Of a DNA stretch of 64,000 nucleotides, positions 14,420 through 14,512 are shown piece after piece. This DNA comes from a virus, in IMG/VR virus record IMGVR_UViG_3300042564_004498, positions 1 to 64,000 of that record; one strand, 5' to 3'. The notes beneath the pieces are model-generated. The model saw only the letters and a list, made by a program, of their open reading frames with translations. It had not been told where the DNA came from and searched no databases. A program made the translations under genes and the position numbers. How positions within the stretch are numbered: the first letter of the stretch is position 1; the number at the start of each line of letters is the position of its first letter.

Positions 14420-14512
14420 TGGTGGTATCAGATGGGTTCGAACCACCGGCACAGAGTCTTTCGTTACTCCTGCTCTACCAAAGGAGATAAATCTCCACTG
14501 AGCTATAATACC
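14420..14512 (-). tRNA. aberrant tRNA-like gene (Phe-like, GAA) with D-loop hairpin insertion and non-canonical anticodon loop
   Basis: Acceptor GGTATTA/TGATACC plus encoded ACCA; T arm ggtgg-ttcgaac-ccatc; D loop carries ggaga-ttta-tctcc; anticodon loop AACGAAAG. Confidence 0.65.

Follow-up and report, generated by a model that had tools for sequence, protein, structure and literature searches.

The window analysed here, namely the first 64 kb of a 145.5-kb viral contig (31.6% G+C, estimated by CheckV at about 48% of a genome), carries on its minus strand a tRNA-Phe-like gene with a fifth helical arm in its D-loop (Table 1). As read from the sequence, its acceptor stem is GGUAUUA/UGAUACC (7 bp, one U.G pair), followed by U8 A9 and then by the D stem GCUC/GAGC, which encloses a 24-nt D-loop made up of AGU, the GGAGA-UUUA-UCUCC hairpin and UUUGGUA. 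In the anticodon arm, position 33 is a C in place of U33 and position 37 is an A, and the arm can alternatively be folded with a 6-nt loop on a 6-bp stem; a C-GAAA-G closure is possible as well. The rest of the gene consists of the variable loop GUGCC, the T arm GGUGG-UUCGAAC-CCAUC, A73 and the CCA. The D-loop hairpin, the 8-nt anticodon loop and the missing U33 described in the initial annotation are all present in the sequence; the orientation of the gene, on the minus strand, had been left unstated. The intact acceptor, T arm and CCA that it reported are confirmed as well. The encoded CCA, however, is not shared by most relatives, which read ACCACAA, ACCACUG or ACCACUA at this place.

The body of the gene is that of an L-shape-competent bacterial tRNA-Phe, with the fifth helical arm set into the D-loop at 16/17. 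Indeed, it shares with bacterial tRNA-Phe(GAA) U8 A9, the GCUC/GAGC stem, G18 G19 U20 A21, A26, GUGYC, the UUCGA T loop, A73 and the GAA anticodon, and it differs from it by a D-loop hairpin of 14-16 nt, an anticodon arm of 18 nt where 17 are normal, C33 and G38. Like canonical elongator tRNAs, it has acceptor, D and T stems of 7, 4 and 5 bp, a T loop of the UUCRA type, the tertiary-network nucleotides and a purine (A) at position 37. It departs from them in its D-loop, normally of about 7-11 nt and devoid of secondary structure but here of 24 nt with a 5-bp hairpin, and in the lack of a 5-bp anticodon stem with a 7-nt loop and U33. The Phe identity nucleotides G34, A35, A36 and A73 are present, and they are invariant in clade 1, the clade of the window gene.

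The score given by the Rfam tRNA model, 38 bits, is above the gathering score of 29, and the corresponding alignment places 19 inserted nucleotides in the D-loop and gives the anticodon loop 8 nt instead of 7. ARAGORN, which had been proposed as a check, does call a tRNA, but as tRNA-Thr(ggt), through a forced fold that uses the hairpin as the anticodon arm. We also considered that the hairpin might be a dispersed repeat and rejected this idea, since the hairpin occurs a single time in the 145-kb contig.

Table 1. Coordinates of the five-arm gene, of its neighbours in the window and of features discussed in related genomes and loci
Feature	Position	Strand	Remarks
Five-arm tRNA-Phe-like gene	14420..14512	-	93 nt including CCA; Rfam RF00005 38 bits; family model R1 104.5 bits
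Encoded CCA	14420-14422	-	3′ end of the five-arm gene; A73 at 14423
Anticodon arm, 18 nt	14453..14470	-	A26 precedes; stem GGAGU/ACUCU, loop AACGAAAG
8-nt anticodon loop AACGAAAG	14458-14465	-	GAA 14460-14462, C33 14463
D-loop hairpin GGAGA-UUUA-UCUCC, 14 nt	14483..14496	-	After A14 G15 U16, before the conserved G18 G19
YrlA-like circularly permuted tRNA mimic 1	14521..14609	-	Rfam YrlA 24.7 bits, E 0.012, gathering 69
YrlA-like circularly permuted tRNA mimic 2	13631..13719	-	Rfam YrlA 25.4 bits, E 0.006, below gathering
GIY-YIG homing-endonuclease ORF	13721..14365	-	PHROG 314 at 1e-33; weak Pfam SegE/NUMOD3
Structured RNA module of about 230 nt, end of the operon	13393..13623	-	Conserved in relatives; closed by a long terminal helix
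Putative promoter box TATCTTTG, Bacteroidota-type -7	14747..14754	-	Motif and flanks common to clade-2 loci
Terminator-like hairpin GGGAAGA...UCUUCCC and U run	13139..13166	-	Sequence read
Rnl1-type ligase genes	G002 268259-268765, G001 303951-304448, G003 70267-70776		Near the RNA operon
Odd-elbow array tRNAs	L068 (G002 293177-293249), L069 (G003 87132-87204), L070 (G001 9506-9578), L107/L108/L111		
tRNAs with a variable-region mini-arm	L068:1136-1217, L070:246-329, L068:6662-6745		
Odd tRNA-shaped genes (two T arms; 121 nt; 88 nt; 4-nt anticodon, in this order)	L069:2145-2238; G003 77560-77680; L060:2547-2634; L067:1241-1317		
D-loop hairpins in other specificities	L021, L022; L100, L136, L170, L194, L225		

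The clade-1 genes belong to a series of RNA modules arranged head-to-tail: a YrlA-like mimic, the five-arm gene, a second YrlA-like mimic, an RNA of about 230 nt and a terminator. In the window the first mimic lies directly upstream of the five-arm gene, from which a spacer of 8 nt separates it, and it is so placed in most clade-1 relatives. The second mimic comes immediately after the five-arm gene in the relatives; between the two, the window genome has a homing-endonuclease ORF, an insertion peculiar to it. The five-arm gene itself is no YrlA, as its arms follow the usual tRNA order and its acceptor end is free, and only the flanking modules are YrlA-like. The 230-nt module, for which no Rfam match was obtained, changes position among relatives and is sometimes found directly before or after the five-arm gene.

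In both clades the locus comes after a small ORF ending in ...GWMLSM and then the TATCTTTG box. We take TAnnTTTG to be the -7 box of Bacteroidota promoters; judging from its sequence, TATCTTTG is likely the promoter of the RNA operon, and the same box points to a host among the Bacteroidota. Likewise, the hairpin followed by a U run likely marks the end of the operon. In clade 2, the sister clade, each five-arm gene forms its own transcription unit, with a promoter, a leader (GTTCTTWAAA) and a terminator. Two further elements were noticed around these modules. An inverted repeat upstream of the homing-endonuclease gene (14366-14419) carries in its loop the TATTTAT that the initial annotation had taken as a candidate late promoter, and a conserved module of about 135 nt (gtaaacc...gggtttac), which has no Rfam match, is shuffled together with the 230-nt RNA (for instance in L005 and L007).

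The five-arm gene is conserved at one locus in two clades of phages of about 310-320 kb. A first search of the viral collection, in which the two D-loop flanks had to be separated by a long gap, gave 37 loci, 33 of which carry the same gene; a second and looser pattern, which was also run on metagenome contigs, gave 69 viral loci. The family is carried by 34 plus 32 viral contigs, to which the metagenome contigs add more, and the same design occupies the matching locus in 34 viral contigs besides that of the window. Clade 1 comprises at least 36 distinct sequences in at least 57 loci and clade 2 at least 35 in at least 71, and each of the four complete clade-1 genomes (308-322 kb) has exactly one five-arm copy. 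The initial annotation had named a normal tRNA-Phe at this locus in relatives as the finding that would speak against it. As the relatives carry the same remodelled gene, this test fails to refute it.

No member of the family was found among 185,579 prokaryotic species, each represented by one genome, where the matches were assembly duplications and archaeal D-loop introns (the latter at loci L041 and L048). Moreover, a blastn search of the locus against 50,697 deposited phage records gave no match. The family is so far a phage-only one.

The structure of the gene is maintained by compensatory change. When 21 distinct clade-1 sequences were aligned over 92 columns, 95.5-97.6% of the cells were paired and 10 pairs had changes on both sides; none of 500 shuffles reached these figures, and slid controls dropped to about 45% paired. 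In 37 sequences from both clades, aligned by fitting to the family model, which favours the structure, 96% of the cells were paired and 20 of the 28 pairs showed a compensatory change. The D-loop hairpin did so in all six of its pairs, with 99% of its cells paired in these 37 sequences. The nucleotides of the tertiary network (U8, A14, G15, G18, G19, A21, A26, G46, C48 and U54-A58) are invariant in the 21 clade-1 sequences.

The hairpins of clade 2 are unrelated in sequence (AACUC/GGGUU, UGUUAAG/CUUAACA or GAAUC/GAUUC, for example) and sit at a site identical to that of clade 1, right after A14 G15 U16 and before G18 G19. The hairpin measures 14-16 nt, with 5-6 bp, and each D-loop insert folds into a hairpin when taken alone. 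In the acceptor stem of the clade-2 genes, a single A, U or C is bulged out of the 5′ strand (for instance L072:8429-8517 and L074:1645-1733). The five-arm gene is real, conserved and under selection, far beyond chance, and the earlier claim that its changes are structured rather than products of decay is borne out by the covariation of its stems, inserted hairpin included, among the relatives.

Nearly all decoding tRNAs have U33, a purine at position 37 and a 7-nt anticodon loop on a 5-bp stem. In the five-arm family the length of the anticodon arm varies, being 16, 17 or 18 nt, with the 16-nt arms in clade 2; among the clade-1 matches listed, it is 18 nt in all 36 distinct sequences, and GAAA is invariant. 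Position 33 is a C in the lineage of the window gene, position 37 is a C in most of the 17-nt clade-2 arms (CUGAACA), and position 38 is G, A or U across the family. Among the matches listed in the two clades, 68 of 71 distinct sequences retain the GAA, the three exceptions reading GGAA, and A73 is kept in nearly all sequences of both clades, again among the matches listed. The universal Phe identity set consists of G34, A35, A36 and A73, to which the E. coli PheRS adds U20 and U59, two nucleotides of the variable pocket (PMC9976931). It is in the region of this pocket that the extra arm emerges. The loss of decoding features, with GAA and A73 retained, suggests that something other than the ribosome reads the anticodon: the constraint lies on the Phe identity set, while the decoding geometry drifts. 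Some clade-2 genes and some unrelated five-arm members retain a fully canonical CUGAAAA loop, and the extra arm may thus be compatible with decoding.

Whether the anticodon loop is closed as a C-GAAA-G tetraloop, as the initial annotation suggested, can be judged in part from the relatives. The pair 33-38 is a standard one in 20 of 21 clade-1 sequences (CG in 15, UA in 3 and UG in 2), which speaks for it. However, few independent events underlie the C33-G38 covariation, C33 may have a single origin, and U33 with A38 is also simply the ancestral tRNA-Phe loop. The rival pair, between the extra nucleotide 31.5 and position 38, is standard in 8 of the 21 clade-1 sequences and fails in the 37-sequence set; one metagenome variant restores it, giving a perfect 6-bp stem with a 6-nt loop. 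Nearest-neighbour energies favour neither the C-GAAA-G closure nor the 31.5-38 pair, and the GAAA tetraloop receptor CCUAAG has no occurrence in the RNA operon.

The five-arm gene is a second Phe-type gene in these phages. Indeed, an ordinary-length tRNA-Phe(GAA) is found in the main tRNA array of all ten relatives checked, six complete genomes (G001-G006, four of clade 1 and two of clade 2) and four partial contigs (G007, G008, G009 and G012). In the four complete clade-1 genomes this array contains 22-30 tRNAs according to ARAGORN with a lowered threshold, and 20-26 Rfam matches. With its default settings, ARAGORN shows no other tRNA-Phe in three complete clade-1 relatives; the idea that the five-arm gene is the only tRNA-Phe of the phage was nonetheless rejected, because Rfam and the lowered ARAGORN threshold reveal the tRNA-Phe(GAA) of the array. 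With this tRNA-Phe(GAA) beside it, the five-arm gene is not simply the Phe decoder of the phage, and a role other than normal decoding is probable.

The tRNA-Phe and tRNA-Val of the array have odd elbows, with a T loop AGCGUAA or AGCAUAA versus UUCGAAU and a D-loop without GG, and these odd-elbow tRNAs are the ones missed at the default ARAGORN threshold.

Searches for partner proteins gave the following picture. A T4 Rnl1-type tRNA-repair RNA ligase is present in five of the six complete relatives, three of which have it at a distance of 4-8 kb from the RNA cluster; none was found in the contig of the window, which represents about 48% of a genome. Rnl1-type ligases are the enzyme class that reseals cut anticodon loops. 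To our knowledge, no anticodon nuclease specific for tRNA-Phe has been described. A CCA-adding enzyme is present in only two of the six complete relatives. Neither a TROVE/Ro60 protein nor a PheRS was found in the window's contig or in the four complete clade-1 genomes, and RtcB is absent from this contig and from all six complete genomes. For the L/F-transferase family the window's contig alone was searched, and it gave a match of 11.7 bits, at noise level.

Two of the functions that had been proposed for a non-decoding RNA find no backing here. No transferase using Phe-tRNA turned up in the window's contig, and no PheRS in this contig or in the four complete clade-1 genomes, that would go with an amino-acid donor, and the ARAGORN tmRNA search of the contig, which found none, gives no support to a partner of SmpB. 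The tRNA-like domain of a tmRNA was also rejected as an identity for the gene itself, whose D stem is intact and whose body is of the Phe type, in a contig where ARAGORN finds no tmRNA. The broader proposal, that the RNA is a tRNA mimic that does not decode, fares better: it is in keeping with a second Phe-type gene in which only G34, A35, A36 and A73 are fixed, and it is plausible, even though some members of the family have a canonical loop.

We tentatively favour, at somewhat less than an even chance, the view that the five-arm gene is a specialised phage paralog of tRNA-Phe, which would act off the ribosome through the Phe identity set. The RNA would be transcribed from a host-type promoter within the multi-RNA operon, between the two YrlA-like mimics. 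Processing of the RNase P and RNase Z types would then release it, with CCA being added where it is not encoded. By virtue of G34, A35, A36 and A73, the RNA would be engaged by a protein that recognises the anticodon of tRNA-Phe, be it PheRS or a nuclease directed at tRNA-Phe. In turn, the altered loop (C33, G38, the extra nucleotide and the possible C-GAAA-G) and the extra arm would bar ordinary decoding. An RNA engaged through its identity set and barred from decoding in this manner may be taken to work off the ribosome, although an 8-nt anticodon loop need not by itself block decoding, as the yeast mitochondrial tRNA-Thr(UAG) has one (PMC7609411).

The most plausible role for such a paralog would be that of a decoy or competitor in the conflict between phage and host over tRNA. 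Published work describes phage tRNAs able to evade anticodon nucleases (PMC10264068, PMC11464382). With these published cases of evasion, the Rnl1-type ligase and the YrlA-like neighbours, a tRNA conflict would be the most natural setting, and no specific nuclease is implicated. A more elaborate version can be formulated, in which the RNA operon, with its two YrlA-like mimics and the five-arm RNA, would be an RNA-only counter-defence module: the five-arm RNA, retaining only the anticodon and the discriminator that a host nuclease or sensor directed at tRNA-Phe recognises, would bind this protein and so shield the real tRNA-Phe pool, while the extra arm and the loop would prevent both use by the ribosome and cleavage. 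We regard this version as unlikely.

The main competing explanation is that the RNA is a working tRNA-Phe decoder, whose extra arm and loop would resist a host defence that cuts or modifies tRNAs, and which would back up or replace the host tRNA-Phe. The tRNA body, A73 and GAA are all intact, CUGAAAA or UUGAAAA loops on canonical 5-bp stems occur in several five-arm relatives, and UUY codons make up 4.7% of the codons of the window's phage. Furthermore, known phage tRNAs evade nucleases by changes in the anticodon loop (PMC10264068; PMC11464382), and an 8-nt loop does read triplets in yeast mitochondria (PMC7609411). Against these points stand the other tRNA-Phe(GAA) in the main array of all ten relatives checked and an arm length that is not fixed (16, 17 or 18 nt). 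C33 eliminates the U-turn uridine in the lineage of the window gene, and in many clade-2 members C37 eliminates the purine that stabilises A36-U pairing. We consider such a decoder somewhat unlikely.

Decoding could also take another form, with the gene specifying a +1 frameshifting tRNA-Phe like the Salmonella SufJ, which would read UUY-N as one Phe at programmed sites. Lying on the loop's 5′ side, the extra nucleotide does recall the C31.5 of SufJ, an insertion that enlarges the loop to 8 nt and causes +1 reading at ACC-N (PMC4238358), and the other seven nucleotides of the loop are CUGAAAA or UUGAAAA in some relatives. However, when pairs of same-strand ORFs in the 0 and +1 frames were examined in the 145-kb contig, a scan that says little about short or regulatory shifts, no pair needed a shift at a Phe codon, and nearly all downstream ORFs had their own start beside the upstream stop. 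In addition, the 31.5-38 pair is standard in 8 of 21 sequences only and fails in the wider set, and the 16-nt arms of clade 2 do not fit the model, which makes a frameshifting role very improbable.

The RNA might instead be a Phe-charged carrier for a non-ribosomal transfer of the amino acid to a protein, a lipid or a cell-wall precursor, the fifth arm being the handle of a phage enzyme. The Phe identity set (PMC9976931) and the acceptor end are conserved while decoding features drift, as this would require, and the extra arm stands at the variable pocket of the elbow, where it is accessible to proteins. On the other hand, there is no candidate transferase, the L/F-transferase match in the window's contig being noise, and the sequence of the arm is wholly different between the clades, which argues against a sequence-specific handle. 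This carrier role is less likely than that of a decoy or competitor, and we judge it rather improbable.

Lastly, the hairpin might be an intron-like insert, or the gene might be a decaying tRNA-Phe pseudogene, two ideas that we find hardly credible. Removal of the hairpin would leave a D-loop of normal length (AGU UUUGGUA), and archaeal tRNAs do carry D-loop introns (L041 and L048). Nevertheless, it is a plain hairpin of 5-6 bp, with no bulge-helix-bulge motif and not of the size of a ribozyme, no RtcB ligase is encoded in the contig or in the six complete genomes, and excision would leave the extra nucleotide of the anticodon arm in place. As for decay, every helix shows compensatory changes and more than 120 loci conserve the gene; with 96% of the cells paired and compensatory change in 20 of 28 pairs, a pseudogene is excluded.

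Several known systems resemble the off-ribosome paralog that we favour, each in some of its features. Phage T4 encodes, in its tRNA cluster, two small stable RNAs, C and D (species 1 and 2), of unknown function, which are co-transcribed and processed with the phage tRNAs. They are not known to retain an anticodon identity set. SufJ (PMC4238358) has the same extra nucleotide on the 5′ side, giving an 8-nt loop with the anticodon triplet intact; it is, however, a laboratory mutant of tRNA-Thr with U33, whereas the five-arm gene has C33 and the arm in the D-loop. The yeast mitochondrial tRNA-Thr(UAG) (PMC7609411) likewise has a natural 8-nt loop, but its codons have no other decoder, and it lacks an extra arm. 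YrlA (RF02553; PMC4201824) is also a phage-encoded tRNA mimic from which decoding is not expected, and YrlA-like modules flank the gene; YrlA is permuted, its acceptor end being closed and one of its stems binding Ro60, whereas the five-arm RNA is unpermuted, with a free acceptor and A73. The phage tRNAs that escape defence (PMC10264068), such as the T5 tRNA against PARIS (PMC11464382), share with it altered anticodon loops and large tRNA arrays. Those described have a 7-nt loop and four arms and were shown to decode, in contrast with the changed loop size and added arm of the five-arm RNA. In the literature on tRNA D-loop insertions, extra arms, expanded phage anticodon loops and phage YrlA, we found no published description of this five-arm design.

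Few architectures in biology are as conserved as the four-arm cloverleaf and the anticodon arm with a 5-bp stem and a 7-nt loop. In these two clades of giant phages, selection maintains a D-loop that bears a fifth arm together with anticodon arms of 16-18 nt. If the RNA were charged without decoding, recognition by the synthetase would be separated from use by the ribosome; if it were a decoy, it would represent a new kind of RNA-based anti-defence. In the meantime, genes with five arms are misannotated, as Thr or Pro, or missed by the standard finders, and this distorts the tRNA inventories of phages.

Other unusual tRNA genes were observed in these phages. A tRNA-Thr(UGU) of 82-84 nt and a tRNA-Cys of 84 nt have GNRA-capped hairpins in their variable region (CC-GAAA-GG and GAC-GAAA-GUC), and extra mini-arms appear to be a general habit of the tRNAs of these phages. 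Hairpins in the D-loop were seen in genes of other specificities, namely a GC-rich tRNA-like gene with a CAU anticodon and G33, and a tRNA-Lys(UUU) with a GCR-GARA-YGC hairpin. Odd tRNA-shaped genes include one with two T arms, one of 121 nt with a nested T arm, one of 88 nt that is class II-like and has UUA within its loop, and one to which ARAGORN assigns a 4-nt anticodon (gtaa). Finally, at metagenome loci such as L120, L124, L164 and L178, a short TAGCTCA fragment lies 15-30 nt before a normal tRNA-Phe gene and comes from that same gene; these fragments could be partial duplications like those left at integration sites.
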